The notes: generated by a model not told the origin, from the letters alone. A stretch of DNA of 64,000 nucleotides from Candidatus Saccharimonadota bacterium (GCA_017404335.1 JAFRCN010000002.1:101821-165820); one strand, 5' to 3'. Numbered from the stretch's first letter, positions 2 to 52,665 are shown. Numbers and translations: made by a program.

Positions 2-370
2 GAAGTTTTGATTGACGACCAGATGCGGATGATTCGTGAAGATATCGAGCGAAATGCGGCATCGCAGGGAATGAGCTTTGAGGATTTTCTCAAGCGAAAT
101 AATGAAACGACGGAAAGCTGGGAAAAGGAAGCCCGCAAAATCGCCGAAAAGCGCGTTAAGGCTTCGCTCGCTTTGCAAACTTTGGCAGTAGAGCAAAAAA
201 TTACCGTTTCGGATGAGTTAGTGAATGCTAAACTCGCTGAGCTTCGCGACGTTTATAAGAAATCGCCAGAGGCTCTGAAAAATCTTAAAAATCCAAACGT
301 CAAGATGGATATCAAGAATCGATTGATTATTGAAGAAACCCTAAACTACCTAGTTAATATTAACAAGTAG
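2..370 (+). CDS. tig: trigger factor, C-terminal fragment (open at the window edge)
   Basis: The frame is open from base 2. The translated tail (KRVKASLALQTLAVEQKITVSDELV...) resembles the C-terminal chaperone arm of trigger factor. A long hairpin follows. Confidence 0.55.
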   Translation, partial: EVLIDDQMRMIREDIERNAASQGMSFEDFLKRNNETTESWEKEARKIAEKRVKASLALQTLAVEQKITVSDELVNAKLAELRDVYKKSPEALKNLKNPNVKMDIKNRLIIEETLNYLVNINK

Positions 371-452
371 GCAACAAAAACTACTTCTCGGACACACTCA
401 AGGGCGTTCGCCCAAGCTTATGGTCCTCGAAGTAGTTTTTTGTTGCCTTTTT
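370..452 (+). terminator. long hairpin terminator after tig
   Basis: Arms of about 18 bp, GGCAACAAAAACTACTTC (370-387) and GAAGTAGTTTTTTGTTGCC (429-447), flank a GC-richer ~40-nt core. A T-run follows. Confidence 0.5.
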
Positions 453-38846: not shown

Positions 38847-39134
38847 ATGGACATAAAACGCGAGGATATTTTGCATTTGGCTAGTTTGTCGAATTTCAAT
38901 CTGACTAATACTGAAATCGAAAGCTTAGGAAGGGATTTGCAGGGAATTATTAAATACATTTCGCAACTTGACGAACTCGATACCGATGGGGTTGAACCGA
39001 CGTATCAAGCTTTTGAGATGGAGAACGTTTGGCGAGAAGATGAAATTCTAGAACAAGAAGCTTCGCGCGAAGATTTGCTCGCGCTAACTAAAAATGAAAA
39101 AGATAATCAAATAAAGGTGCCAAAAGTATTATGA
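38847..39134 (+). CDS. gatC: Asp/Glu-tRNA amidotransferase subunit C
   Basis: 95 aa. HLASLSNFNLT...GVEPT is typical of GatC. Leaderless layout. Confidence 0.88.
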   Translation: MDIKREDILHLASLSNFNLTNTEIESLGRDLQGIIKYISQLDELDTDGVEPTYQAFEMENVWREDEILEQEASREDLLALTKNEKDNQIKVPKVL

Positions 39135-40585
39135 AAACTGCGAATAAAAAAGTTACCGCCGAGAGATTAGTGAGAGATGCTTTAGAAAAAGCGAAACATT
39201 TTTCTGATTATAATATTTTTACGTTTATAAATGAAGAAGGCGCGATTTTACGCGCGCGTGAAATCGACGCGAAGATTGCTAACGGTGAGAAAGTCGGGCG
39301 ACTCGCGGGAGTACCGTATGCCCTTAAAGATAATTTTCTTTCGCCTGATGGCGAAACGACGGCTTCGGCACATATTTTAGGTGGGTTTACCTCGCCGGTT
39401 ACGGCGACGGCGGTTGAGAAGTTAGAAGCTGAGGGAGCGATTATGATCGGGCGAACCAATTTGGACGCTTTTGCGCACGGATCGTCGACTGAGAATTCTT
39501 ACTATGGACCGACTTTGAACGCGTTTGACCGCAAGCGAGTGGCCGGAGGGTCGTCGGGTGGATCGGCGGTAGCGGTAGCGCTTGATATTGTTGAATTTAC
39601 GACTGGGACGGACACCGGTGGATCGATTCGTCAGCCGGCGTCGTTTAATGGAATTTATGGGTTTAAGCCGACTTATGGGACGATTAGTCGGTACGGCGTG
39701 GTCGCGATGGCGTCGTCGCTTGATTGTATCGGGTTCTTTACGAAAACGCCGGAAGATATGGATCTTCTTATGGAGATTACTGCCGGACGAGACCCGAAAG
39801 ATTTGACGACATTGCCCGATTACTACAATTCTATCGATAGGGATTCGCTAGGCGCGGCGTGTCCTTCGGACACGCTCCGGGCCGCTCTGGCCAAGTCTTC
39901 ATGTTCCGCAGAACACATCGCGCCTAGCGAATCCCATCGAATTGGAATTATCAAGGATTTCGATAATGAGTCGGTCGATAAGGAGATTCGAGATGCGCTC
40001 TTGAAGAAGTGTGAGATGCTGAAAGAGAAGGGATGTGAAATTGTTGAGCTTGAGATGCTGAGCCTCAAATATGCTTTGCCGGCGTATTACATTATTCAGC
40101 CGGCGGAGGTGGCGTCGAATTTATCGCGATACGACGGAGTGCGCTACGGATTTCGTTCGGAAAAGTCGGCGGATTTAGATTCTCTATATAATAATACGCG
40201 GAATGAAGGCTTTATGCCGGAAAACAAACGCCGGATTATGATTGGAAATTTCGTGTTGTCGTCTGGGTTTTACGATGCATATTTCTTAAAGGCGGCAAAA
40301 GCGCGGACTTTAATTATTCGTGAATATGAAAAGGCTTTTTCTAAATGTGATTTTATTCTAACGCCGGTTTCACCGAGCCCGGCTTTCCGACTCGGCGAAA
40401 AAGTTAACGACCCGGTCGCAATGTATCTTGAAGACGTCATGAGCGTGTCTCTAAATCTAGCTGGAATACCAGGACTTACAATCCCAGCGGGAAAGACTAC
40501 CGAAGGATTGCCGATTGGGTTGCAGCTAGTTGGTCCGAGGCGTAGCGATAAAAACCTAATAAAATTCAGTAAGGAGCTAATCTAA
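39131..40585 (+). CDS. gatA: Asp/Glu-tRNA amidotransferase subunit A, carrying a 32-aa in-frame insertion
   Basis: Amidase signature GGSSGGSAVAVA and TDTGGSIRQPA. The insertion is described separately. Confidence 0.93.
   Translation: MKTANKKVTAERLVRDALEKAKHFSDYNIFTFINEEGAILRAREIDAKIANGEKVGRLAGVPYALKDNFLSPDGETTASAHILGGFTSPVTATAVEKLEAEGAIMIGRTNLDAFAHGSSTENSYYGPTLNAFDRKRVAGGSSGGSAVAVALDIVEFTTGTDTGGSIRQPASFNGIYGFKPTYGTISRYGVVAMASSLDCIGFFTKTPEDMDLLMEITAGRDPKDLTTLPDYYNSIDRDSLGAACPSDTLRAALAKSSCSAEHIAPSESHRIGIIKDFDNESVDKEIRDALLKKCEMLKEKGCEIVELEMLSLKYALPAYYIIQPAEVASNLSRYDGVRYGFRSEKSADLDSLYNNTRNEGFMPENKRRIMIGNFVLSSGFYDAYFLKAAKARTLIIREYEKAFSKCDFILTPVSPSPAFRLGEKVNDPVAMYLEDVMSVSLNLAGIPGLTIPAGKTTEGLPIGLQLVGPRRSDKNLIKFSKELI
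39835..39939. repeat. GC-rich palindromic element inserted in frame in gatA
   Basis: 17-nt perfect inverted repeat: GGGATTCGCTAGGCGCG (39840-39856) with CGCGCCTAGCGAATCCC (39919-39935). Inner hairpin GCGTGTCC-TTCG-GGACACGC. Confidence 0.8.
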
Positions 40586-41004
40586 TGGATGGTGGAGTAG
40601 TAACTTTTATCTTTGCGATTTTAATCGTTGCGGTGTTGGTATTTGTGGCGATTTTACTAACCGGAAAGCGGGGATACCATTTTAACGTTGAAGCTTATCA
40701 ATCACGCTTTTTAGCGATTGAAAACAGATTAAAGCAAGATAATCCGGCGAGTTTTGTGACGACAATTATCGAAGGGGATAAATTACTTGATAAGGCGATG
40801 GTTGAGATGGGGATTTCCGGAAAGACAATGGGTGATAGATTAAAAAAGGCGAGTGGTCGGTTTACGAATTTAAATGCAGTTTGGCGCGCACATAAACTTC
40901 GTAATATGATTGCGCACGAGTCGGACGTCGAAATTAGCTACAAACAAGCGTTTAATGCGCTCGCGGTTTATAAACAAGCTTTGAAGGATTTAGGAGCAAT
41001 ATGA
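40585..41004 (+). CDS. membrane-anchored hypothetical protein with an HEPN-like RNxxxH motif
   Basis: TAATG overlap with gatA and ATGA overlap with gatB. N-terminal TM segment. AHKLRNMIAHE motif. Confidence 0.65.
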   Translation: MDGGVVTFIFAILIVAVLVFVAILLTGKRGYHFNVEAYQSRFLAIENRLKQDNPASFVTTIIEGDKLLDKAMVEMGISGKTMGDRLKKASGRFTNLNAVWRAHKLRNMIAHESDVEISYKQAFNALAVYKQALKDLGAI

Positions 41005-42413
41005 AATATACGCCAACGATTGGAATTGAATGCCATGTTCAACTTTGTACGAAAACGAAGTTGTTTTCGGAAGTCGATAACGACGCGAGGAGGAAGGAAC
41101 CAAATTCTTGCGTTTCGCCGGTCGACTATGCTTTGCCGGGGATGTTACCGAGGCTAAACGGTGAGGCGGTCCGCTTCGCGATTCGGGCGGGTCGAGCAAT
41201 GAACTGCGAAATTAATGCGTATTCACGATTTGACCGGAAACATTATTTCTACCCGGATTCGCCGAAGGGTTATCAGATTACGCAGTTTTACCACCCAATT
41301 ATTGGCGCGGGATACGTAGAGCTACCGTCGGGTACCAAAATTCGGATTGAGCACGCGCATCTCGAAGGAGACGCGGGGAAGTTGACGCATTTTTCGGATT
41401 ACTCGCTGGTTGATCTAAACCGAGTCGATACGCCTTTGATTGAGATTGTCTCAATGCCAGATATCCATAGCGCTAAAGACGCTCACGATTACTGTAAAGA
41501 GCTTTGGCGGTTGATGTGCTTCGCGGAAGTGACCTACGGAGATCTATATAACGGAAATATGCGGTTCGATGTCAACGTTTCGTTGGCGCCGGAAGGTTCC
41601 GATAAATTGGGAACGCGAGCGGAAGTGAAGAATCTGAATTCGTTTAAGAGCGTTGAGCGGGCGGTCGAATATGAAATTTCAAGGCAGAAGAAAATTCTCG
41701 AAGCTGGTGAAAAGGTTATCCAGGAAACGCGTGGGTGGAATGATGCGACCGGGAAAACGACCGGACAACGTTCAAAGGAAGAGGCGAAAGATTATCGTTA
41801 TATGCCGGAGCCGGATTTGCCACCGATTAATCTGTCGGAAGAGTTTATTGAGACCGAGTCGAAGAAGTTGCCGCTAATGCCGAAAGATTACCGCGAGAAA
41901 TTCGCTGGAATTATTCCAAATGATATTCTAGAAATTTTATTAGATTATCATGAATTAATGAAAAAACTAAATGAAATTGATAATAAATATGTAAAGATTA
42001 TTTCTAACTTATTCGCTTCGGTGCTGCTCGCGGAAGAGAAGTCGGCGGAGTACTTAAATGACTTACCGAGCGCGAAGGACTTAATTGAACTTGCGGAGAT
42101 GAATGAGAAAAAGGAGCTGTCTTCGACGGCGACGAAAGAAGTGTTTTTGCGATTATTTGACCCGCAAATGAAAGGACGAGGGGCGAAGACGATCGCGAAG
42201 GAACTCGGTTTAATTCAGGAAAATGACCTAGGGGCGCTCGAAGCGATAGTCGACGCCGTTTTAGCAAAACCGGAAACGAAAAAGGCTCAGGAAGACTTCA
42301 AGGCAGGCCAGGAAAAAGTGATTGGGTTTTTGGTCGGACAAGTAATGAAAGAGTCAAGAGGCAAAGCCAACCCGTCTGCAGTGCAAGAAATTTTGCGAAA
42401 AAAACTTGCTTAA
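41001..42413 (+). CDS. gatB: Asp/Glu-tRNA amidotransferase subunit B
   Basis: IGIECHVQL, HLEGDAGK, and a GatB/YqeY C-terminus. Confidence 0.94.
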   Translation: MKYTPTIGIECHVQLCTKTKLFSEVDNDARRKEPNSCVSPVDYALPGMLPRLNGEAVRFAIRAGRAMNCEINAYSRFDRKHYFYPDSPKGYQITQFYHPIIGAGYVELPSGTKIRIEHAHLEGDAGKLTHFSDYSLVDLNRVDTPLIEIVSMPDIHSAKDAHDYCKELWRLMCFAEVTYGDLYNGNMRFDVNVSLAPEGSDKLGTRAEVKNLNSFKSVERAVEYEISRQKKILEAGEKVIQETRGWNDATGKTTGQRSKEEAKDYRYMPEPDLPPINLSEEFIETESKKLPLMPKDYREKFAGIIPNDILEILLDYHELMKKLNEIDNKYVKIISNLFASVLLAEEKSAEYLNDLPSAKDLIELAEMNEKKELSSTATKEVFLRLFDPQMKGRGAKTIAKELGLIQENDLGALEAIVDAVLAKPETKKAQEDFKAGQEKVIGFLVGQVMKESRGKANPSAVQEILRKKLA

Positions 42414-42427
42414 GCTTGCATTTTTGG

Positions 42428-42925
42428 AACGAAAGGAGTAATATATAATTCACGCGGGTAAAGTTTTTGACTAACCCGACGTAATTTAAGAGGAAAGGAG
42501 ATGGCTTTCGTGCGGGATGAGTTCCTGCGGCAAACGCTTTGTCCAGCGTATGTGTCGTTTGTTCTCTATCTCGGGAAAAAGGCGGAGCATTCTGATCGAC
42601 CGGGTAGGTTAATCCTCACGGACGGTTCGACCCGCCAGTTTTTCCCATGGCACCCCAAGCGACGGCGGGGGTACCTACGGTCCAGTCTGTATGTCGAAAC
42701 CCGGCCTACATGACTAGGAAGATACTAGGTACCCCCGCTAGTTATTTCGCCCTTCGGGCAAAGGGCAAGCAGAAAGCATATCGGGAGCACACAACGAATA
42801 CTGGCGGTCGGAGAGCCCAAAATGAGTGGCGGCCGACTTGAGGGTAGACCGCTAGGGCGGCTCCTCACCATCATTCGCGACGCAGACAAAACCATCGTTT
42901 CCAGTACTTTTCTACCATTCCCATG
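42428..42925 (+). ncRNA. rnpB: probable RNase P RNA (bacterial type), unusually long; ends approximate
   Basis: Four elements occur in the expected order. GAGGAAAG lies at 42489-42496 (CR-I-like). GGGCAAAGGGCAAGC lies near 42755. GGAGAGCCCAAAAUGAG lies near 42809. GCAGACAAAACCAUCGUUU lies at 42881-42899 (CR-V-like) and can pair with AAAGGAGAUGG as P4. Overlapping ORFs look non-coding. Confidence 0.55.
42664..42737. repeat. 74-nt hairpin with a 13-bp perfect stem inside the RNase P RNA region
   Basis: GCGGGGGTACCTA (42664-42676) pairs with TAGGTACCCCCGC (42725-42737). Confidence 0.75.
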
Positions 42926-42938
42926 GGTCAAAGACCCG

Positions 42939-42963
42939 GCCCCGGCCAAGTGCCGGGGTTTTT
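42939..42963 (+). terminator. rho-independent terminator
   Basis: CCCCGGC-caagt-GCCGGGG followed by TTTTT. Confidence 0.75.
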
Positions 42964-43067
42964 CTTTAAAATCTTTCGAAAAAAGAAAAAGTATGATAAA
43001 ATGGAGAAAATGCGTCTTTTTGAGTGTGGAACTCTTGGACAAAAATAATTAAGTAATAAAGGAGCAT

Positions 43068-45164
43068 ATGGCTGAAGTTAAGGATTTGGCTAAGCTGCGA
43101 AATATCGGGATTATCGCCCATATCGACGCAGGAAAAACTACAACCTCGGAAGCGATTCTTTACCGCACGGGGTTAAAACATAAAATCGACCTAGTAAAAG
43201 GCGGGACCGGTGGTGCGGATACCGACTGGATGGAACAGGAAAAGGAACGCGGAATTACGATTACTTCGGCCGCGGTGACGGTTTATTGGAAAAATCATCA
43301 AATCAACATTATCGATACCCCGGGTCACATCGACTTTACGGCGGAAGTCGAGCGATCTTTGCGGGTTCTCGACGGTGCAGTTGTAGTGTTCGATGGTAAA
43401 ATGGGGGTCGAGGCGCAGTCTGAGACGGTCTGGCGCCAAGCGACTAAATACGGGATTCCACGCATTTGCTTCGTAAATAAGATTAACCAAATCGGTGGCG
43501 ATTTCTATAAGTCGCTTGACTCGATTCATAAGCGTTTGTCGAAAAATGCCGTCGCAATTCATCTCCCGATTGGTTTCGAGAAAGATATTTGTGGCGTCGT
43601 AGATTTAATTGATATGAAGGCTTATACCTATAAAGATTATGCGGACCACGAGCTCACCGTCGGCGAGATTCCGGCCGATATGGTCGAAAAGGCAAAAAAT
43701 GCGCGCTCGATGTTGGTCGAGGAAGCGGTCCAAGCCGACGAAGCTTTAATGGAAAAATACTTCAACCAAGGTGAAGAAGCAATTTCGGAAGTCGAGCTAA
43801 AGGCGGCTCTAAGAAAGCGCGTGCTTGATGGCGATTTCTTCCTAGTCACCGGTGGGGACGGACGAGGCGTAATCGTCGAGAAGGTGCTTGATCTCATGAC
43901 GGATTATCTCCCGTCGCCGCTTGATCGCGACCAGGGTCAAACCGTTGGGACCGACCCGAAGTCTGGCGAACAAATTGTAAGAAAAGCTGACGACAACGAA
44001 CCTTTAACGGCTCTCGCGTTTAAGATTGCAACTGATCCGTTCGTTGGTAAGTTGATCTTTATTCGGGTTTACGCGGGTAAATTAAAGTCCGGAGATACGG
44101 TATTAAACGCTTCGACTGGCGATAAGGAAAGAATTGGACGGTTAGTCCGAATGCACGCGAACGACCGAAAGGAGATTTCCGAAATCGGAGCGGGCGATAT
44201 CGCGGCGGTAGTCGGGCTTAAGAACTGTACAACCGGTACGACAATTTGTAACCCAGCGCATCCGATTTTGCTCGAGTCGATTGAATTCCCGGATCCTCCG
44301 GTATCGATTGCGGTCGAACCAAAAACTAAGGCCGACCAAGAGAAAATGGGCATCGGTCTATCGAAACTTGCTGAGGAAGATCCGACTTTCCGCGTCCACA
44401 CTGATGAGGAAACTGGCCAGACGATTATTTCGGGGATGGGCGAGCTACACCTAGAGATTATTATTGACCGTTTGAAGCGCGAACACAACGTCGAAGCCAA
44501 CACTGGCGCACCGCAAGTGGCCTACCGTGAAACGATTCGAGGTACGGCTGAAGCGCAAGGTAAGCACATTAAACAGTCTGGTGGTCGTGGTCAGTATGGT
44601 GACGTTTGGATTAAGTTTGAGCCGAACGAACCGGGTAAAGGCTTCGAGTTTATCGACCAGATTAAAGGTGGCGTGGTTCCGCAGGAATACCGCAAGCCGG
44701 TTCAGAAGGGTATCGAGGATACACTCGCGGGTGGTGTTATTGCTGGCTACCCGGTAGTAGACGTCAAGGCGACCTTGTACGACGGTTCATATCACGATGT
44801 TGACTCTTCGGAGCTAGCCTTCACGCTCGCTGGTGCTTTAGCTACACGCGAAGGCATCAAGAAGGCAAATCCGGTCTTACTTGAACCGGTGATGAAGATG
44901 GAGATTACGACGCCGGAAGAATTCATGGGTGACGTTATTGGCGACATTAACTCCAGGCGCGGTCGAATCGACGAAATGGAAGATTTGAACGGCGGTGCGA
45001 AGTTAATCAAGGCGTTTTGTCCTCTCGCTAACCTATTCGGTTATACTGGCGACCTTCGCGGTATGACCCAAGGTCGAGCGGCTTCTTCGATGGAGCTCTT
45101 CGCCTACGAGGAAGTACCGCCGAACGTAGCGCAAGAAATTATCGAATCGAGAAACTCGAAATAA
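43068..45164 (+). CDS. fusA: elongation factor G
   Basis: AHIDAGKTT, DTPGHIDF, and the full five-domain length (698 aa). Confidence 0.96.
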   Translation: MAEVKDLAKLRNIGIIAHIDAGKTTTSEAILYRTGLKHKIDLVKGGTGGADTDWMEQEKERGITITSAAVTVYWKNHQINIIDTPGHIDFTAEVERSLRVLDGAVVVFDGKMGVEAQSETVWRQATKYGIPRICFVNKINQIGGDFYKSLDSIHKRLSKNAVAIHLPIGFEKDICGVVDLIDMKAYTYKDYADHELTVGEIPADMVEKAKNARSMLVEEAVQADEALMEKYFNQGEEAISEVELKAALRKRVLDGDFFLVTGGDGRGVIVEKVLDLMTDYLPSPLDRDQGQTVGTDPKSGEQIVRKADDNEPLTALAFKIATDPFVGKLIFIRVYAGKLKSGDTVLNASTGDKERIGRLVRMHANDRKEISEIGAGDIAAVVGLKNCTTGTTICNPAHPILLESIEFPDPPVSIAVEPKTKADQEKMGIGLSKLAEEDPTFRVHTDEETGQTIISGMGELHLEIIIDRLKREHNVEANTGAPQVAYRETIRGTAEAQGKHIKQSGGRGQYGDVWIKFEPNEPGKGFEFIDQIKGGVVPQEYRKPVQKGIEDTLAGGVIAGYPVVDVKATLYDGSYHDVDSSELAFTLAGALATREGIKKANPVLLEPVMKMEITTPEEFMGDVIGDINSRRGRIDEMEDLNGGAKLIKAFCPLANLFGYTGDLRGMTQGRAASSMELFAYEEVPPNVAQEIIESRNSK

Positions 45165-45167
45165 AAA

Positions 45168-45195
45168 GAGGACCGGGAAACCGGTCTATCTTTTT
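45168..45195 (+). terminator. terminator after fusA
   Basis: GACCGG-gaaa-CCGGTC followed by a T-rich tract. Confidence 0.6.
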
Positions 45196-45240
45196 ATTAT
45201 AGCATACTTCGCTATAAAAGTCAAGTTTTCAGAAAACCCC

Positions 45241-45269
45241 TTTACAAGTTGGAGAAAATAAGCTAGAAT
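45241..45269 (+). promoter_or_regulatory. tuf promoter
   Basis: TTTACA, 17-nt spacer, TAGAAT. The leader carries a TTGGAGC...GCTCCAA hairpin and an AAGGAG RBS. Confidence 0.45.
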
Positions 45270-45336
45270 AATAAGGTAGAGTTTTGGAGCTGGTTTTTAT
45301 TAGCGCTCCAAACATAATAATAAAAAAGGAGATTGA

Positions 45337-46521
45337 ATGGCAAATTTTGACCGTTCCAAGCCGCACATCAACGTCGGCACCATGGGTCACGTCGACCATG
45401 GTAAAACCACTTTAACCGCTGCTATTACGACTGTCCTTTCGAAGAGATTGCCTTCGGAAGTCAACAAGCCGGTAGCTTACGACCAAATCGATAACGCGCC
45501 TGAAGAGAAGGCTCGTGGTATTACTATCGCGACTTCGCACCAGGAATACGAATCTGAGAAGCGCCACTATGCGCACGTCGATATGCCGGGGCACGCAGAT
45601 TACATTAAGAACATGATTACCGGGGCCGCGCAGGTCGATGGGGCAATCCTCGTCGTAGCTGCGAACGATGGACCGCTTCCGCAGACTCGCGAGCACGTCC
45701 TTCTCGCTCACCAGGTAAACGTTCCGAAAATCATCGTATTTTTGAACAAGATGGACCTCGCGGATCCAGAACTCGTCGAACTCGTCGAGATGGATGTTCG
45801 CGAACTTCTCAACAAATACGGTTTCGATGGCGACAACGCGCCGATTATCAAGGGCTCTGCTACTAAGGCTCTTGAGGGCGACAAAGAAAACGAAGACGCT
45901 ATCATGGAACTCGTTCACGCGATGGATGAATACTTTGATATCCCTGAACACGATCTTGATAAACCGTTCCTCATGCCGATCGAGGATGTCTTCTCGATTA
46001 AGGGTCGTGGTACGGTTGCCACTGGTCGTATCGAGCAGGGTGTTGTTAAATTGAATGACGAAGTTGAAATCGTCGGTCTACGCGACACTCAGAAGTCGGT
46101 TGTGACCGGTATCGAGGCCTTCCACAAGACTCTCGATCAGGGTCAAGCTGGCGATAACGCTGGGCTTCTTCTCCGTGGTATCGAGCGCGATCAAATCGAG
46201 CGTGGTCAAGTTATTGCGAAGCCGGGTTCGATTACTCCGCATACTGAATTTGAGGCGCAAGTTTATATCCTTAAGAAAGAGGAAGGTGGACGCCACACTC
46301 CGTTCTCCAAGGGTTACAAGCCGCAATTCTACTTCCGTACTACGGATGTTACCGGTGAGGTTGAGCTCCCGGCTGACAAGGAAATTGTCATGCCTGGCGA
46401 TCAGGTAACATTTAACGTTAAGCTTCTCGCGCCGGTCGCGATGAACAACAATGACCGCTTCGCTATCCGCGAAGGTGGCAAGACCGTTGGGTCTGGTGTG
46501 ATCACCAAGGTTATCAAATAG
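45337..46521 (+). CDS. tuf: elongation factor Tu
   Basis: [23 protein letters not shown] and NKMD motifs. 394 aa. Confidence 0.98.
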
Positions 46522-46536
46522 TTAGCCTTAGCTAGA

Positions 46537-46566
46537 AAATCTCCCCTTTACTGGGGAGATTTTTTG
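46537..46566 (+). terminator. terminator after tuf, overlapping the rpsJ promoter
   Basis: ATCTCCCC-tttact-GGGGAGAT followed by TTTTT, running into TGTGGTATAAT. Confidence 0.7.
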
Positions 46567-46652
46567 TGGTATAATAGGGGAGTAGCAATATTAATTATCA
46601 AGCTCGAAAAACTCGTGTCTTTGGAGGTTATCGAGCAAAGAAAGGATACACT

Positions 46653-46979
46653 ATGGCAGATGCCAAAAAAGATGAAGGATTAAAGATCCGGATTCGTCTA
46701 AAAGCGTATGATCACCGCGTAATTGATCAGAGTGCGCGCCAAATTGTCGATACGGCAATTCGAACGGGCGCGAGCGTATCGGGTCCAATCCCGCTACCAA
46801 CCAAGCGTTCGACCTTTACCGTCGTAAAGTCGCCGCACGTCTATAAGACTGGCGGGGAAGCGTTCGAAATGAAAGTTCACAAGCGCTTAATCGACATCCT
46901 CAACGCGACACCGAAGACGATTGAGAGCCTACAGAATCTCGCATTGCCAGCAGGCGTAGATGCCGAAATCAAAATGTAA
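46653..46979 (+). CDS. rpsJ: 30S ribosomal protein S10
   Basis: [17 protein letters not shown]... is classic S10. A terminator follows rather than rplC. Confidence 0.96.
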
Positions 46980-46993
46980 ATTCTTAAGAATTG

Positions 46994-47023
46994 AAAAAAC
47001 TCCCGAGGAATCGGGAGTTTTTA
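46994..47023. terminator. bidirectional terminator
   Basis: AAAAACTCCCGA-ggaa-TCGGGAGTTTTT. Confidence 0.75.
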
Positions 47024-47049
47024 AGGTGCGTTCTAAGGGTTTTAGCGTC

Positions 47050-48249
47050 TTAACGGCGCTTCTGTTGGGAAACGACGGCGACGAGGCGCCCGTCGGGCTC
47101 CTTCGTGACGTAAGTCGCGTAGTTCTCGACGCCGACAAAGCCGGCAATCAGGTCGTCGGAAATGTTGGAGCAGAGCACGGTGTTATTCCTGGCGCCAAAG
47201 CTGAAATCTTCCGAAAGAAAATCGTCGTGTTTGAGAAAATCTTCGGCAAGAGTTTTGACATGCTGGCTTTCATCTAAACGGGCTACAATGATCGCCGGAC
47301 GATCTTTAATAATCGTAAAGATGATTGCGTCATCTCTAGCTCCAGCTACACGAAGCTCCATTCCTGGTTCGGCGTAGAGCAGGCTGCGACGGCAATCGAT
47401 ACGCTCGAACGTGCCACCGCCGAGACTGGCATTCTTGTGGTTGGGGGACTTTTTCGAGATTTCGTAGAAACTCTTTAAAGTTCCGCAGTCGTGCCAGGGG
47501 AATCTGCCGACGGCAACTTTCAAACCAATTAGCTTCTTCATTAAAGCATCAGTTGCGAGGCCGTTTCGCCCGATTCTCTTGCTATTTAGCTCATCCGCCA
47601 TGTAATCCGCGCGCCAAACTAGAATGCCGGTGTTGCAGACAGAGTTATCGCTACGCATAAGACGATCAGCGTGATCTCTTGAGGGTTTCTCGATGAAACC
47701 CGAAACGGGAAAGCATCCGTCTTGGTCTGGCCTAGAATTGTCATAGGTTGCGTGCCCGCACCCCATGGCGGTCACGAGGTCGCCAATTTTAACTCCAAGC
47801 AAGGCAGCACCGTTATGTTCAGCGACGGATACCGCGTTATTAATTGATTCCTTGAAGCTCTCGTTGGCTACGATGTACTGGTCGCTAGGAGTGTTGATGA
47901 TGGTAGCATCCTTGTCGATCGCACGAATCATCTCCTTGGCTTTCACCATTGAGCCGGCATAGTCCAAGTGTGGGCTAAACTCTAAAATGTTTTGAGATAG
48001 CACCCCCATAGGGACGGTCTGTTCGCGAGCGAGTTCTGATTGCGTCTGGTTTGTCGTTACAATCATGATACGATTCGGTTCAACTTCTAAGTCATTCAAA
48101 CGAGAAACCGTCGCCTGGATGAAAGTATCCTTGTCATTCAGACGGCAGAATTGCTTCGGTCGGTCTGGAGTGCTAATGCCAAACAGGCGATAACCGCTTC
48201 CACCGGCAATAATAACTCCGCGACGCTTCTTGTGTCGTGACTGGTCCAA
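47050..48249 (-). CDS. sugar-phosphate nucleotidyltransferase (mannose-1-phosphate guanylyltransferase-like)
   Basis: TTG start 6 nt after AAGGAGGG. The N-terminus GVIIAGGSGYRL...RPKQF is typical of the family. Confidence 0.7.
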   Translation of the reverse strand: MDQSRHKKRRGVIIAGGSGYRLFGISTPDRPKQFCRLNDKDTFIQATVSRLNDLEVEPNRIMIVTTNQTQSELAREQTVPMGVLSQNILEFSPHLDYAGSMVKAKEMIRAIDKDATIINTPSDQYIVANESFKESINNAVSVAEHNGAALLGVKIGDLVTAMGCGHATYDNSRPDQDGCFPVSGFIEKPSRDHADRLMRSDNSVCNTGILVWRADYMADELNSKRIGRNGLATDALMKKLIGLKVAVGRFPWHDCGTLKSFYEISKKSPNHKNASLGGGTFERIDCRRSLLYAEPGMELRVAGARDDAIIFTIIKDRPAIIVARLDESQHVKTLAEDFLKHDDFLSEDFSFGARNNTVLCSNISDDLIAGFVGVENYATYVTKEPDGRLVAVVSQQKRR

Positions 48250-48314
48250 ATTAATCCCTCCTTAGAAAATCTGTAAAAGTGCAAAATGGGCCCGAAAATA
48301 GGTCCATCTTTATA

Positions 48315-48343
48315 ATTATAGCACAGATTATGTTTTTTGTCAA
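48315..48343 (-). promoter_or_regulatory. consensus promoter for the nucleotidyltransferase gene
   Basis: On the minus strand: TTGACA (48338-48343), 17-nt spacer, TGTGCTATAAT (-10 at 48315-48320). Confidence 0.55.
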
Positions 48344-48364
48344 CTTATGCTATAATAGAACGGT

Positions 48365-49633
48365 ATGTATAATAAGTTTAAAAAGCGGTTTTACTTTGCA
48401 TTTGCGGGGTATTTTCGGTTCTTTGCGAATCGGGTTTATAAGAGGTGGAACCCGCGAGTGATTGCGATTACGGGGTCGGCTGGCAAGACGACAATGTTGA
48501 ATTTAGTCGAACATGAGATGGGAAAGCGGGCGCACTATTCGCACGATGCGAATTCGGCGTTCGGAGTACCGTTTGATATTTTGGGGTTAAAAGGGATTCG
48601 AGGGTCGAAGTTGAAGTGGGCGTGGCTGTTTATTGCGGCGCCGTTTAAATCGATTTTTAAGAGACACAAGGAGAAATATTATGTAGTCGAGATTGACGGG
48701 GAAAGGCCGCACGAGGCGGAGTTTCTCGCGGAGTGGCTGAAGCCGGAAGTGACGGTCTGGGTGTCGATTGGGCGATCGCATGCGGTACAGTTCGAGAGAG
48801 AAGTAGCGGAGGGGAACTTTGACGATTTGGACGAAGCGATTACGGCGGAGTTCGCGAATCTACCGAAAAACACTTTAAAACGAGTCTATATCGACGCGGA
48901 TTCTAAGGTAATGGCGAAGGCGACCACGGGGATTCGGGCAAAAGTAATTTTGATAAAGAAAAAAGAAGTGAAAAAATACGTAGTTTATCCGAATTCGACG
49001 GATTTTACCTACGGAGATACGACTTTTCATTTTGATCACCCAGAGCCTAAGGAAATCGCCTTTCATCTTTTGGTGCTGCAGGATTTGATGAAATATCTAA
49101 AGCTACCTTTTGTGAACGATTTTTCGGATATCAAGATGGCGCCGGGGAGGAGTTCGTATTTTAAAGGCATAAAAGGGATCAATATCGTTGATAGTAGCTA
49201 TAATGCGCACATGATTTCGGTAGCGTCGATTCTCGATATGGTGAAGAGGATGCATGCGGAGAAAAAGTGGCTCGTGATTGGCGATATTGTCGACCAGGGG
49301 TCTTTGACTGAGGAAGAGCACCGGAAGTTAGCAGGACTAATCGCCGAGGCGAAGCCGGAGAGAGTGATTCTCGTTGGGCGGAGGACAAAGGAGTTTACCG
49401 CGCCGGAGCTCAAGAAGCTGGGTGTCTCGGCGGTGGCGACAACTGATCCCCGGAAGGCTCTGGAATATATTGAGAAGAAAATCCGGGGGAATGAGACTTT
49501 GATATTTAAGGGAAGTCAATATCTAGAGTGGGTGATCGAGAAGTTACTCGAGAACCCAGAGGATGCGAAAAAATTATGCCGGCGCGAGAAGGCGGCGGTC
49601 GCACGGCGCAAAAGTTGGGGGCTGGACTCGTGA
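48365..49633 (+). CDS. Mur ligase family protein (MurF-like core, no N-terminal domain)
   Basis: ITGSAGKTT P-loop and Mur ligase middle and C-terminal layout. Leaderless layout. Confidence 0.7.
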   Translation: MYNKFKKRFYFAFAGYFRFFANRVYKRWNPRVIAITGSAGKTTMLNLVEHEMGKRAHYSHDANSAFGVPFDILGLKGIRGSKLKWAWLFIAAPFKSIFKRHKEKYYVVEIDGERPHEAEFLAEWLKPEVTVWVSIGRSHAVQFEREVAEGNFDDLDEAITAEFANLPKNTLKRVYIDADSKVMAKATTGIRAKVILIKKKEVKKYVVYPNSTDFTYGDTTFHFDHPEPKEIAFHLLVLQDLMKYLKLPFVNDFSDIKMAPGRSSYFKGIKGINIVDSSYNAHMISVASILDMVKRMHAEKKWLVIGDIVDQGSLTEEEHRKLAGLIAEAKPERVILVGRRTKEFTAPELKKLGVSAVATTDPRKALEYIEKKIRGNETLIFKGSQYLEWVIEKLLENPEDAKKLCRREKAAVARRKSWGLDS

Positions 49634-49647
49634 GGAGGAGGTTTTAG

Positions 49648-50325
49648 GTGGCGGATTTATATGTTATACATGGGTGGACCTACACGGTGGAGCCTTGGAA
49701 GACGACAATAAAGCTACTCCGCGAAAACGGAATTAGCGTAAAGATGTTAAACGTGCCAGGACTGACGGAGCCATCAAACAAGGAATTTACGATTGCGGAT
49801 TATGTAAAATGGGCCGATAAGGAGATCCCGGACGGAGCGATTGCGCTCGGACATTCGAACGGGGGGAGAATTTTAATGAATCTTTGTACGCTTAAGCCTG
49901 AGAAATTAAAATATTTGATTTTGCTCGATTCGGCGGGAGTATATGAGCCGACGGCGAAGAAGAAATTGATCGAAAAAATGGCGAAAATTGGTAAACCGCT
50001 CAAGAAGATACCGCTAGTCGATAAAGCTTTTCACCGAATTACCGGAACGACGGATTATTCGAAGGCGCCGGAGAATATGAAAAAGACGCTGGCGAATATG
50101 CTGGCGTCGGATAAGGATTTAGATTTTTCGAAGGTGACAACGAAGACGTTTATTCTTTGGGGGAAGAAAGACACAACCACTCCACCGAGGCATGCGACAA
50201 AGATTTATGAAGGATTACCGAATGCGGAGCTGAAGTTTTATGCGAATTGGACGCATGCGCCGTACATTTCGAGTCCGGAGGAGCTGGCGCGGGCGCTAGT
50301 GACGCTCATGGGGAGGATTAAGTGA
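49648..50325 (+). CDS. alpha/beta hydrolase
   Basis: GTG start, GHSNGG nucleophile elbow, 225 aa. Confidence 0.7.
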   Translation: MADLYVIHGWTYTVEPWKTTIKLLRENGISVKMLNVPGLTEPSNKEFTIADYVKWADKEIPDGAIALGHSNGGRILMNLCTLKPEKLKYLILLDSAGVYEPTAKKKLIEKMAKIGKPLKKIPLVDKAFHRITGTTDYSKAPENMKKTLANMLASDKDLDFSKVTTKTFILWGKKDTTTPPRHATKIYEGLPNAELKFYANWTHAPYISSPEELARALVTLMGRIK

Positions 50326-51608
50326 AGCATTATTTTCTTGGGATGGCGGCGAATTACTCGGGCGGTAAGTGGCTCCGGCATCTTTTTGCGGTGGGGCGAA
50401 AGAGGGATTATGATGAACTAGCGGAGTTTTTAGGAAAGAAATATGACGGGGAAGCGGTTTTGTGTAAAAACGGAAGGTCGGCTTTAGCTTTAGCTTTAAA
50501 GACCTATTTTCGGCCGGGAGATGAGGTTTTGGTTAACGGGTTTACATGCTATGCGGTTTATGAGGCCGTTAAGGCGGCTAAACTGAAGCCAGTTTTTGTC
50601 GACATAAACAAGCAGGATTTAAATTTTGATATTAAGACGCTCAGGAACGCTAGGTCCGGTCGATTCGAGGTCATTCGCGACAACGGGAGCGAGATAGCGA
50701 GCGAGCCCCGTAACGACGGGCGCGAGCGAAGCGGACCGAGAAGCGACTGGACTAGCGTTCAGGGGATTATTATTCAAAATACACTTGGAAATCCGGTGGA
50801 TATTAAAGCGATTGAGAGGTTTGCGAAGGAAAATGATCTTTTGATTATCGAAGACTTGGCGCACTCGGCGGGAATTAGATATCCGGATGGGAGAGAGGCC
50901 GGAACGGTCGGAGTGGCGACCGTCTTATCATTCGGAAAAGACAAGTCGGTTGATACAATTTCGGGAGGCGCGGTAGTGTTCAGGGGTGAACTTTTGTCAA
51001 ACTTTGGGGCGCGTCCGGCCGGCCCGTTGCCACGGGCGGCCGGCGCTACTCCTCGCGCTGCCGCGCTCCGGACCCCCTCAGTTTTGACAAAAGCTTCACC
51101 CAGTAAACTCCCAAGACTCCGAGATCATCTCAGAGCGAGGTTTTATCCGATGTTTGGGGCGCTGTGTCGGACGCTGTCCTATGTTCATTTAGGTGGAGTC
51201 TTGATGCGACTACTAGTTAAAATCCATTTGGTCGAAAAATCGGCGGATAATAAGCTCGATTTAGAGCGCAGAATGAGTAAATTCGAAGCAAAATTAGCGT
51301 TAGAACAAATCAAAAAATTGAAGAATAAACCGCTTAGGAAGTTTTATCTAGTAGACGACCGAGAGAAAGTTTTGAAAGAATTACGAAAAGCGGGATACTT
51401 TTTCGACGGGTTTTGGTACGAAAAGCCGGTCTCACCGGAGAGGTATTACAAAAAGGTGCATTTTCCGGAGGAGGAGTGCCCGAACGCGGTGTTTGTTTCG
51501 AAGCGTATTATTAATTTCCCGAATATTTATTCTAGGGAGGAGCTAGCGACGGCGCGTAAAATCATTGAGAAATATCTCATCAAGGAGGGTGCGGATGGAA
51601 AAAAGTAA
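50322..51608 (+). CDS. DegT/DnrJ/EryC1-type aminotransferase with two 39-aa in-frame insertions
   Basis: Family-like blocks (VNGFTCYAVYEAV..KPVFVD, IIEDLAHSAG, SFGKDK). The two inserts are described separately. Confidence 0.75.
   Translation: MKHYFLGMAANYSGGKWLRHLFAVGRKRDYDELAEFLGKKYDGEAVLCKNGRSALALALKTYFRPGDEVLVNGFTCYAVYEAVKAAKLKPVFVDINKQDLNFDIKTLRNARSGRFEVIRDNGSEIASEPRNDGRERSGPRSDWTSVQGIIIQNTLGNPVDIKAIERFAKENDLLIIEDLAHSAGIRYPDGREAGTVGVATVLSFGKDKSVDTISGGAVVFRGELLSNFGARPAGPLPRAAGATPRAAALRTPSVLTKASPSKLPRLRDHLRARFYPMFGALCRTLSYVHLGGVLMRLLVKIHLVEKSADNKLDLERRMSKFEAKLALEQIKKLKNKPLRKFYLVDDREKVLKELRKAGYFFDGFWYEKPVSPERYYKKVHFPEEECPNAVFVSKRIINFPNIYSREELATARKIIEKYLIKEGADGKK
50645..50760. repeat. GC-rich palindromic element A, in frame in the DegT-like gene
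   Basis: GAACGCTAGGTCCGGTCG (50645-50662) is an imperfect inverted repeat of CGACTGGACTAGCGTTC (50744-50760). The core contains CCCGT-aacg-ACGGG. Confidence 0.7.
50985..51100. repeat. GC-rich palindromic element B, in frame in the DegT-like gene
   Basis: GGTGAACTTTTGTCAAACTTTGGGG (50985-51009) is an imperfect inverted repeat of CCCCCTCAGTTTTGACAAAAGCTTCACC (51073-51100). The core is very GC-rich and self-complementary. Confidence 0.75.
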
Positions 51609-52665
51609 TCTAGAATGGGCGGAAATCGTCAAAAAGTTCCCGGAGGCGAATTTCTTACAGTCGCCGGCTTATGCGGAGATGAATAGGCTAATTGGCGAGA
51701 AAGTAATAATCGAGGATTTTGACGGGAAGGGGCGAGCGCTGATGGTTGTAAGAGAGGCAAAACGAGGAAAGTATCTCGAGATTCCGTGCGGACCGCTGAT
51801 CGACTGGAAGGATACAAGGCTGGTAAAGCGCGTCTTGAAGCGAATTAACGAAATCGCGAAGGCGGAAAAGTGTGTCTTCGTGAGGATTAGACCACAACTT
51901 TATAAAACTCCTGAGAATATGAAGATTTTGGAGCGGGCGGGGCTAAAAAAATCGCCGATGCATCTCGCGGCGGAACATACGGTGGTAATCGATTTAAGTA
52001 AAAGTGAGGATGAGCTACTAGCTAAAATGCGAAGACAAACCCGCTATGATGTCCGGCGGGCGGAAAAACTCGGAATTGAAGTACTAAAAAGTAATTCAGA
52101 GGAGCTATTCAAGGAATTTCATGGGGTGCAGGCGGAAACAGCAAAAAGACAAAAGTTTATTCCGCCGAGTTTAGAGACTTTGCTGGCTGAGAGAGCGGCT
52201 TTTGGCGATAACATCGCAATTTATGTAGCGACAATCGACTGGACGGGTCCTGCCGTCGCATCTTCCCCTGCGCGCGCTGGCGCGGGGGACCCCCAAGCGA
52301 CGTCACCCGTCCATGAACCACTATCTAAACCAATTGCTTATGGTCTCGTGATTAAGGACGGAAAGGAAGGGGATTATTACGAAGCGGCGTCGACGGATTT
52401 GAATCGGAAACTACCGGGAGCACATGCAATTCTATGGCGGGCGATGCGAGATTTGAAGGCTGAGGGCTATGAGCGATTTAACCTTTGGGGGATTGCGCCG
52501 GCGGGGCAACCGCACCACCGGTACGCCGGAGTGACAACATTCAAGACCGGCTTCGGTGGAGAGATTGTCGAATACGTCCCGGCGCATGACATGATTATTT
52601 CGCAGGTGCGATATTTAAAAAACTGGATAGTTGAAACGGCGCGAAGAAAAAGGAGACATTTATGA
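51595..52665 (+). CDS. FemAB-family peptidoglycan peptide-bridge transferase (paralog 1, with insertion)
   Basis: The start is taken at MEKSNLEW, 6 nt after AAGGAGGG. FemAB-like blocks include RRQTRYDVRRAEKLG. Confidence 0.75.
   Translation: MEKSNLEWAEIVKKFPEANFLQSPAYAEMNRLIGEKVIIEDFDGKGRALMVVREAKRGKYLEIPCGPLIDWKDTRLVKRVLKRINEIAKAEKCVFVRIRPQLYKTPENMKILERAGLKKSPMHLAAEHTVVIDLSKSEDELLAKMRRQTRYDVRRAEKLGIEVLKSNSEELFKEFHGVQAETAKRQKFIPPSLETLLAERAAFGDNIAIYVATIDWTGPAVASSPARAGAGDPQATSPVHEPLSKPIAYGLVIKDGKEGDYYEAASTDLNRKLPGAHAILWRAMRDLKAEGYERFNLWGIAPAGQPHHRYAGVTTFKTGFGGEIVEYVPAHDMIISQVRYLKNWIVETARRKRRHL
52240..52313. repeat. GC-rich palindromic element, in frame in FemAB paralog 1
   Basis: TGGACGGGT (52240-52248) pairs with ACCCGTCCA (52305-52313), plus GCCGTCGC with GCGACGTC. 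Inner hairpin CCCCTGCGC...GCGCGGGGG. The element is absent from paralog 2. Confidence 0.75.

Follow-up and report, generated by a model that had tools for sequence, protein, structure and literature searches.

Palindromic repeats that lie in frame inside protein-coding genes are known from Rickettsia, whose palindromic elements RPE-1 to RPE-10 (Ogata et al. 2000) are summarised in PMC10969869 and PMC3733652, and sporadically for repetitive extragenic palindromes (REPs) and transposable elements of the miniature inverted-repeat type (MITEs) (PMC10969869, PMC3733652). REPs of the CGTC type are described as having no dedicated transposase (PMC3733652, PMC3116915), and REPs can in turn serve as targets of insertion sequences (ISs) (PMC3733652). 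Here we analyse a 64,000-nt stretch of a Candidatus Saccharimonadota genome (GCA_017404335.1 JAFRCN010000002.1:101821-165820; hereafter the window), in which four GC-rich palindromic segments, termed E1 to E4, interrupt gatA, a DegT-like aminotransferase gene (twice) and one of two FemAB paralogs, all at the places where an initial annotation had located them. We consider it likely that these segments represent four or more families of small (~70-120 nt), GC-rich, non-coding mobile hairpin repeats of ruminant-gut, Nanosyncoccus-type Saccharibacteria. They are best read as selfish repeats akin to the Rickettsia palindromic elements (RPEs), REPs and MITEs, filtered by selection to sites that are translatable and tolerated. 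The RPE-like behaviour that the annotation had proposed is borne out by lineage-specific palindromes in frame, by the same cores in unrelated genes and by strong folds, and its remark that it knew of no such description for CPR-type genomes agrees with our full-text literature searches, which found no description of such in-frame repeats for Saccharibacteria, Patescibacteria/candidate phyla radiation (CPR) bacteria or Nanosyncoccus.

Four GC-rich hairpins open in the frames of their host genes

All four segments have complementary termini and, as had been claimed, a GC-rich core, with 62-71% GC against 45.4% in the window as a whole. When folded against shuffled controls, a check proposed with the annotation, every segment proves far more stable than shuffled sequence: the RNA minimum free energies of E1, E2, E3 and E4 are -59.3, -59.3, -69.8 and -46.2 kcal/mol, the corresponding z-scores -9.0, -5.6, -5.9 and -5.1, and none of 200 dinucleotide shuffles is as stable. 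A scan of the whole window for GC-rich hairpins returns E1-E4 and a single intergenic hairpin, a total of 5 against a mean of 0.23 in locally shuffled sequence. The host frame is open through all four segments, in keeping with the annotation, and E1-E3 have only one open frame per strand. The accompanying claim that each segment is a multiple of three fails for the hairpin spans (96, 116, 118 and 74 nt), of which only the first is divisible by three, but holds for the net insertions relative to orthologs: compared with the near-identical relative L004, E3 adds exactly 90 nt and E4 adds 84 nt, and compared with 456-aa GatA orthologs E1 adds 84 nt.

Insert-free orthologs were found for every host gene, as expected if the segments are lineage-specific insertions. 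The DegT orthologs are 364-439 aa long; where inserts are missing, the E2 site is reduced to 3-8 residues and the E3 site shows a consensus of 14 residues. In L004, a syntenic relative whose EF-Tu, EF-G and Mur ligase are 100%, 99.9% and 98% identical to those of the window, the 90-nt E3 core is missing as a clean gap in an otherwise near-identical alignment; the arms alone are kept (GGTGAACTTTTGT|CAAAAGCTTCACC), and the junctions of the window's core relative to L004 bear a 4-nt direct repeat, CAAA. E4 is absent from L004 and from a further relative, L005, and the DegT site that holds E2 in the window is occupied in L004 by an E1-type core, near-identical over ~70 nt to the E1 core of the window's gatA but flanked by different arms. 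The E2 core is 98.7% identical over 77 nt to its counterpart in L005, and the surrounding DegT flanks have diverged (mean column identity of 72% in a three-way alignment). Presence or absence of copies therefore varies even between near-identical genomes, and every close relative with a named source is called Candidatus Saccharibacteria or Nanosyncoccus. Judged by sequence alignment to PDB structures of GatA and DegT, the GatA insert occupies the linker before the second lobe, and the E2 insert a loop that precedes one of the core strands in the aminotransferase fold; an AlphaFold2 model of GatA (41-sequence alignment) had a mean predicted local distance difference test score of 44 and was unusable. 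Among the same relatives, the GatB of L004 is 496 aa long as opposed to 470 aa in the window, and the 26 extra residues may be another element; in L005 (5272-5384) the called FemAB paralog 2 is inflated to 378 aa, as it begins at an ATG upstream of an E2-like element that itself precedes the likely true start.

The possibility that GC-rich hairpins gave rise to these segments through chimeric assembly or sequencing error we regard as close to negligible: GatA with E1 occurs identically in 6 contigs, including a 178-kb scaffold, from at least three independent ENA assemblies, the elements recur at the same sites in dozens of independent metagenome-assembled genomes (MAGs) and metagenomes, and reading frames are preserved. 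The exception that speaks for artefact is a pair of database proteins, P0244 and P0250, which look like two genes fused at an E2 element. By-eye reading of their motifs places both joins (Tgt to ArgRS in P0244, ArgRS to Obg in P0250) exactly at the E2 copy; these are probably repeat-caused assembly chimeras, and they suggest that E2-type repeats can mislead metagenome assemblers.

Table 1. Palindromic elements and related features of the window (positions counted from its first nucleotide)
Feature	Position	Strand	Context	Properties
E1	39840..39935	+	gatA (39131-40585)	96-nt hairpin; 17-bp perfect outer arms GGGATTCGCTAGGCGCG / CGCGCCTAGCGAATCCC; 62-nt core, GCGTGTCC-TTC-GGACACGC...GGCC..GGCC...GTTC..GAAC; encodes RDSLGAACPSDTLRAALAKSSCSAEHIAPSES
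gatA flanks of E1	39818..39952	+	codons DYYN.. / ..IGII	imperfect inverted repeat, 17 nt, 76% complementary
E2	50645..50760	+	DegT-like aminotransferase gene (50322-51608); loop between NFDIKTL and GIIIQN	116-nt hairpin; 9-nt perfect termini GAACGCTAG/CTAGCGTTC; encodes NARSGRFEVIRDNGSEIASEPRNDGRERSGPRSDWTSV
E3	50984..51101	+	same DegT-like gene as E2, 3' of GGAVVFR motif	118-nt hairpin; 18-nt arms GGGTGAACTTTTGTCAAA / TTTGACAAAAGCTTCACCC; GC-rich core encodes GARPAGPLPRAAGATPRAAALRTP
E3 core	50998..51087	+	within E3	90 nt; absent in L004
E4	52240..52313	+	FemAB paralog 1 (open reading frame 51565-52665)	74-nt hairpin; 9-nt perfect termini; motif CGGGTCCTGCCG ... CGTCACCCG; peptide WTGPAVASSPARAGAGDPQATSPVH
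F6 element (fifth)	368..449	+	intergenic, directly 3' of the first gene and upstream of rpsL	terminator-like hairpin, then T-run; z=-7.4
Empty E1 site	12606..12634	-	IleRS gene	KFKMRGEDKCYFLAW; orthologs L017 and L041 filled by E1 in reverse orientation
gatB-fusA region	42450-42970		intergenic	~520 nt, GC-rich
Hairpin in gatB-fusA region	42665-42738		intergenic	13-bp perfect arms; z=-6.3
Terminator of gatB-fusA region	42938-42968		intergenic	intrinsic terminator at the end of the region

Dispersed families with conserved cores and covarying arms

The search for further copies that had been suggested with the annotation shows the same cores in unrelated genes across Saccharibacteria. Copies of E1 were gathered by an exact 20-mer of its core, which has 47 exact matches at 45 loci in GTDB genomes, all of them in Saccharibacteria/Nanosyncoccus MAGs with as many as 7 or more per genome, and no match outside Saccharibacteria; the named sources of E1-bearing MAGs are goat, sheep, roe deer, buffalo and yak. 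Elements of this kind reside both in short intergenic spacers, where they are often terminator-like, and in conserved housekeeping genes. For E1, 26 copies are genic and lie in long open reading frames (ORFs) of at least 17 host families, namely GatA, DegT, TsaD (two sites), IleRS, LeuRS, a ValRS-like or other class-I aminoacyl-tRNA synthetase, topoisomerase I, TrmD, KsgA, Der, UvrA, exonuclease I (SbcB), exonuclease VII (XseA), a GT4 glycosyltransferase, a Wzy-like protein, DAGK and a P-type ATPase; the remaining copies are intergenic, several of them with a hairpin followed by a T-run. Two of these hosts, exonuclease I (L031:499-1938) and the large subunit of exonuclease VII (L033:1952-3064), each with an in-frame E1, are enzymes that suppress quasi-palindrome template-switch mutations.

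Dissection of 46 E1 copies reveals a common plan, a 55-67-nt core with three small hairpins (one with a UUCG loop) closed by arms of 13-23 bp; in the window copy the inverted repeat can be traced to 31-nt arms that are 87% complementary, with the inner 17 bp perfect. Across the 41 copies with distinct arms of at least 13 bp, from which the pairing and identity figures derive, arms pair at 97.6% of positions within a copy as opposed to 42% between copies, and all four Watson-Crick pair types occur at each stem position. Arms of different copies are 29% identical, against ~80% (ungapped) for the part of the core outside the search 20-mer. In the orthologous IleRS copies of L017 and L041, ~9 of 20 arm positions differ and both copies stay paired, whereas L016 and L040, paralogous copies of one genome, have arms and core in common, which suggests that arms travel with the element and then diverge while remaining complementary. 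The arm mismatches are nearly all transitions, with 8 wobble (G.U) and 15 A.C on the sense strand and hence no G.U excess, and the two orientations are equally common in genes; together these observations argue for constraint or correction acting on DNA, or on both strands, rather than on mRNA. Selection on the arms at the mRNA level, considered as an alternative, is unsupported by this asymmetry (8 versus 15).

The E1 core can be read without a stop in five of its six frames, and intergenic copies often have stops in every frame. All genic copies nevertheless use a single frame per orientation: 14 of 14 plus-orientation copies are read as ACPSDTLRAA.AKSS.SAEH and 12 of 12 minus-orientation copies as CSAEHEDLARAARSVSEGH, the three unused open frames encoding peptides rich in Arg, Trp, Phe and His. 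With the genic copies counted as ~21 independent sites, we calculate that such one-frame usage would arise by chance with a probability of ~5e-5 (plus) and ~1e-3 (minus), a pattern that fits selection on a translated peptide rather than an excised or bypassed segment. The predicted insert-spanning tryptic peptides include those with ...AALAK ends and SSCSAEHIAPSESHR, and the VSEGHAAPSESLS type for reverse copies.

These statistics bear directly on the idea that the segments are removed or skipped before a protein is made, by intron-like excision, by bulge-helix-bulge cleavage and ligation, or by ribosomal bypassing (byp), which we judge highly improbable. Such removal would account for very stable hairpins (-46 to -70 kcal/mol) inside essential mRNAs and has a parallel in yeast mitochondria, where mobile GC-rich palindromes are bypassed. 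It would, however, lift the constraint on frame and stops, so that the 26 of 26 genic E1 copies that are in frame, stop-free and confined to one frame per orientation speak against it, as do net insertions in multiples of three. No self-splicing intron, ribozyme or known structured RNA was matched by the elements among the Rfam covariance models, and Rfam 15, queried at gathering thresholds and at E<=10, gave no match on E1-E4 or on 15 E4-family loci.

The remaining segments likewise belong to families of their own. E2 recurs in DegT and GatA, at the sites described, in any of three states of frame or orientation, and also in Obg, Pol I and ArgRS-like proteins; its peptide, searched against 1.8 billion cluster representatives, gave 13 hits, among them three unrelated repeat proteins (P0242, P0245, P0249). 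E3-like copies occur in GatA orthologs, in IleRS (L041) and in a 690-aa ORF (L037), and a composite E3/E2 copy lies in Der (L036). The E4 motif given in Table 1 has at least 126 matches in metagenome contigs of 34-74% GC, over which its internal-loop form, CGGGUCCUGCCG / CGUCACCCG, is conserved; it is absent from Rfam, and a literature search with the motif string found nothing relevant. An alignment of 44 E4-family copies shows stems that covary on both sides of the fixed motif, and the copies in contigs whose GC content resembles that of Saccharibacteria (42-47%) are in frame in GatB (one of them in L064), TsaD, topoisomerase I, MnmA and Pol I; a search with the E4 peptide in four frames returned one weak match, an outcome probably due to composition filters. 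Among the metagenome loci L058-L177 (for example L061, L073, L078, L119, L084 and L165) the motif extends far outside contigs of such GC content; there it lies mostly in very short intergenic spacers and has covarying stems. It has at least two subtypes, centred on CCCCC..GGGGG(A/T)CCCCC and on CTCGC..CTCGA. The core of F6 is intergenic in the window, but GatA orthologs of other Saccharibacteria (e.g. P0139, P0161, P0177) have it in frame at their hot spot. The annotation had argued that the segments are not copies of one MITE family; this holds for the four against one another, but none is unique, each standing in its own multi-copy dispersed family. It had also noted a heptamer, CGCTAGG, common to the arms of E1 (39840-39856) and E2 (50647-50661), which is real but confined to this pair; elsewhere both families have different arms. 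The sharing may be due to chance (~1% by our estimate) or to exchange between arms within the genome.

An alternative is that the hairpins are retained for a benefit to the host, as RNA or DNA structures (for example in mRNA stability, transcription termination or translational pausing, or as sites for a nucleoid or uptake protein) or as surface loops that diversify the proteins of an epibiotic parasite. Cores do outconserve the adjoining coding sequence in orthologous copies, arm pairing has been kept through many compensatory changes, intergenic copies resemble terminators (hairpin and T-run), and the E4 internal-loop motif persists over a wide range of GC contents (34-74%). We nonetheless find a host benefit unlikely, considering that the same core serves at least 17 unrelated proteins in both orientations, that copies are polymorphic between near-identical genomes and decay by internal deletion (P0170, P0205, P0231), that families replace one another at a single site, that the transcribed strand is free of G.U bias, and that template switching within quasi-palindromes can maintain arm pairing mechanically.

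Site reuse, core inversion and nesting in hairpin loops

A small number of sites is hit again and again. At the GatA linker, 100 of the 120 closest cluster representatives have an insert, drawn from at least eight families or orientations, and the other 20 have a linker of 10-14 aa. Site 1 of TsaD holds E1 in both orientations as well as an E4-family copy, the topoisomerase site holds E1 and E4-family copies, and TsaD site 2 lacks an insert in two genomes while two more have E1 there, with unrelated arms, nearly all of the 106-nt palindrome being new sequence. Within homologous arms the core can be inverted: L053 and L054 carry the E2 core at the GatA site in opposite orientations, and L039 and L045 differ in the same way for the E1 core in TsaD. 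Elements also nest. In L055 the apical loop of E2 holds a 75-nt hairpin that the almost identical L056 lacks, and CGAC stands at either junction; the E3 core of the window is placed centrally between the arms kept in L004, with its CAAA likewise at both junctions; L010 has an additional mini-hairpin within loop 2 of E1; L052 and L057 have nested copies in E2 loops; and an E4-like copy is nested in the E2 element of another DegT gene. The events in L055, the E3 core, L010, L052 and L057 (5/5) fall in hairpin loops, and further copies of the 75-nt and 21-nt inserts were absent from the loci compared. Direct repeats of 4 nt mark the two clean junctions (CAAA, CGAC), and none is evident around 40 E1 copies. 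In insert-free GatA genes (L178, L179) a short inverted repeat, AATGAT / ATCATT, frames the empty linker, which is suggestive, no more, of a hot spot situated in the loop of a weak hairpin formed by conserved host codons. A separate class of AT-rich palindromes, 160-190 nt long with outer arms of 19-26 bp, was noticed in Saccharibacteria loci (L009:1813-1981, L017:4892-5083, L031:5885-6047, L022:3927-4100, L028:3566-3742); 3 of these 5 (L009, L017, L031) also have inner arms of the TTTTTACAACGG..CCGTTGTAAAAA type, and one of the class fills a locus where a relative has E1.

We also considered whether the palindromes arise locally and repeatedly, through template switching during replication (snap-back or quasi-palindrome extension) in variable linkers, and are not truly mobile. 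L004 has arms without a core and no net length change relative to the ortholog consensus, net insertions at several sites are shorter than the palindromes (87 versus 104 nt in IleRS, 84 versus 96 nt in GatA), and the host codons at the GatA site are weakly palindromic, all of which speaks for such an origin. It is very unlikely as a full account, however, because cores of ~60 nt are near-identical over their common stretch in unrelated genes of many genomes, because nearly the entire palindrome at TsaD site 2 is new, and because the L016/L040 paralogs have arms as well as core in common. The arms are probably shaped by template switching, but it cannot create families. A related candidate, that E1 arms are inverted copies of the host target, was rejected as a general rule on account of TsaD site 2, where the palindrome is almost wholly new; at other sites part of the arm may overwrite host sequence.

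We therefore favour dispersal of selfish hairpin repeats, for which the following scheme can be proposed. Genic copies would be transcribed and translated as hydrophilic loops rich in Ala, Ser, Pro, Gly, Arg, Asp and Glu, and purifying selection on the host would purge insertions that are out of frame, bear stops, use a harmful frame or fall outside tolerant linkers, a filter that would explain the in-frame behaviour. The form that is selected or maintained would be a folded single strand or cruciform DNA rather than mRNA. As to movement, our best guess is that hairpin loops are either inserted into or repaired from a template, with ~4 nt of homology left at the junctions; the loop preference and short junction repeats are compatible with a structure-specific enzyme or with loop cleavage and templated repair. 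Switching of template from arm to arm would keep the arms complementary, as quasi-palindrome template switching is able to do without selection.

Several points weigh against this reading. No transposase, reverse transcriptase or HUH enzyme was seen in ~0.5 Mb of sequence, a weak test based on consensus queries, those for RAYT/Y1 giving nothing below E=0.3 by tblastn in the window and loci. The 4-nt repeats may be microhomology instead of a target-site duplication, as the clean junctions number only two, and translation of the inserts is inferred from frame statistics. Sampling by an exact 20-mer inflates the apparent conservation of the E1 core, though the other 30-40 nt are also conserved; the extreme reuse of sites could reflect targeting or selection alone; and between L017 and L041 the E1 core is more conserved than its coding flanks, as a host-level function would give.

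It is possible, though doubtful, that the repeats are no ordinary MITEs but form a distinct, modular class of hairpins that integrate specifically into existing hairpin loops, including weak ones made by host codons, so that palindromes grow by nesting, cores are swapped and flipped within persistent arms, and any site, after a first hit, stays open to further landings for good. In that case the E4 motif would be the signature of a widespread and so far unrecognised system of mobilisation or recognition, specific for structure and common to CPR bacteria and high-GC organisms. The motif itself may be a structured element that is both new and widespread. If selfish dispersal is correct, these families would be a second case, independent of Rickettsia, of selfish palindromes in essential proteins of a reduced-genome epibiont, suggesting a general consequence of that lifestyle and not a Rickettsia curiosity. 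Inserts of this kind lengthen and diversify marker proteins (aminoacyl-tRNA synthetases, GatA, TsaD, topoisomerase I), where they would confound alignments, phylogenies and structure prediction, and they can break or chimerise CPR assemblies; the core and arm architecture, core flipping and loop nesting amount to a natural experiment on the movement of hairpin DNA for which no transposase is known, one with abundant data (100 of 120 GatA orthologs occupied).

Besides the host genes of E1-E4, the window contains murJ, the other genes of gatCAB, fusA, tuf, rpsJ, a Mur-ligase gene, a hydrolase gene, the second FemAB paralog and dnaE. The GC-rich intergenic region between gatB and fusA (Table 1) is partly conserved in L004 (L004:1-730), with a common 74-nt hairpin and ~90% identity over the last ~160 nt. 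Two strings in it, AGAGGAAAGGAG and GTCGAAACCCGGCCTAC, resemble the P4 strands of RNase P RNA; the region has no Rfam match even at E<=10 and no tmRNA, and may be a divergent RNase P RNA or another non-coding RNA.

Comparison with described palindromic repeats

Mitochondrial GC clusters, double-hairpin elements and byp elements of fungi, sponges and placozoa are GC-rich palindromic islands in AT-richer, compact genomes that insert into coding regions and into each other, and for which, too, no transposase is known. They are organellar, and some are bypassed or stand in frame-disrupting positions, so that the likeness is one of analogy alone. IS1397 and IS1111-type elements prefer the loop of an existing palindrome or REP as target, much as the nested insertions described here lie in palindrome loops, but those ISs are autonomous and bear a transposase, unlike the gene-less 21-90-nt hairpins of Saccharibacteria.

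With MITEs such as Correia/NEMIS, ERIC, RUP, BOX and Nezha (PMC10969869) the present elements share small size, absence of coding capacity, hairpin formation, dispersal, polymorphism between strains and occasional in-frame fusions to ORFs. What defines a MITE family, however, is that its terminal inverted repeats are conserved and its target-site duplication is of fixed length, matching a parent IS (PMC10969869). In E1 the termini are instead the least conserved part (arms 29% identical), E4 differing from it in keeping conserved sub-terminal motifs; junction homology amounts to only ~4 nt in two events, there is no known parent IS, and a related autonomous IS was not seen in the ~0.5 Mb of loci, again a weak test.

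REPs and REPINs, with their GTAG or CGTC tags and RAYT transposases, are likewise short GC-rich stem-loops, mostly just 3' of genes, with some inside replication and repair genes, and folded single-stranded DNA is thought to be their active form (PMC3733652, PMC3116915). E4 resembles them in an unpaired CGTC adjoining the outer stem and a CCA end. The differences are several: REP units measure 20-40 bp with stems of 8-9 bp, as opposed to 70-120 nt with multi-hairpin cores here; E1-E3 have no consistent terminal tag, GTAG standing next to the core in a few E1 copies and CGTC being internal in E4; no RAYT was found in the DNA sampled; and copies seem to be single-digit per family in each genome sampled (E1 up to at least 7), not in the hundreds.

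The closest likeness is to the RPEs, which, as far as the summaries cited above describe them, are palindromic repeats of ~100-150 bp in several families, dispersed through the reduced genome of an obligate symbiont or parasite, many of them in frame in unrelated housekeeping genes with a conserved peptide per family, with intergenic copies too and no dedicated transposase known. The features of that functional class all recur here: a palindrome of ~70-150 nt, dispersed copies, stop-free insertion in frame, and a preferred frame with a conserved peptide. The comparison is one of features, made for elements of Saccharimonadota, and does not extend to membership in RPE-1 to RPE-10. What sets these elements apart is that they are GC-rich islands in a genome of 45% GC, that E1 combines a conserved core with arms unlike in each copy, that both orientations are used and cores are inverted, and that hot spots are reused to an extreme degree (100 of 120 GatA orthologs) with nesting into hairpin loops. 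The core and variable-arm plan, the flipping of cores, the nesting in loops, the degree of site reuse and the broadly distributed E4 motif go beyond the descriptions of RPEs in the cited papers.

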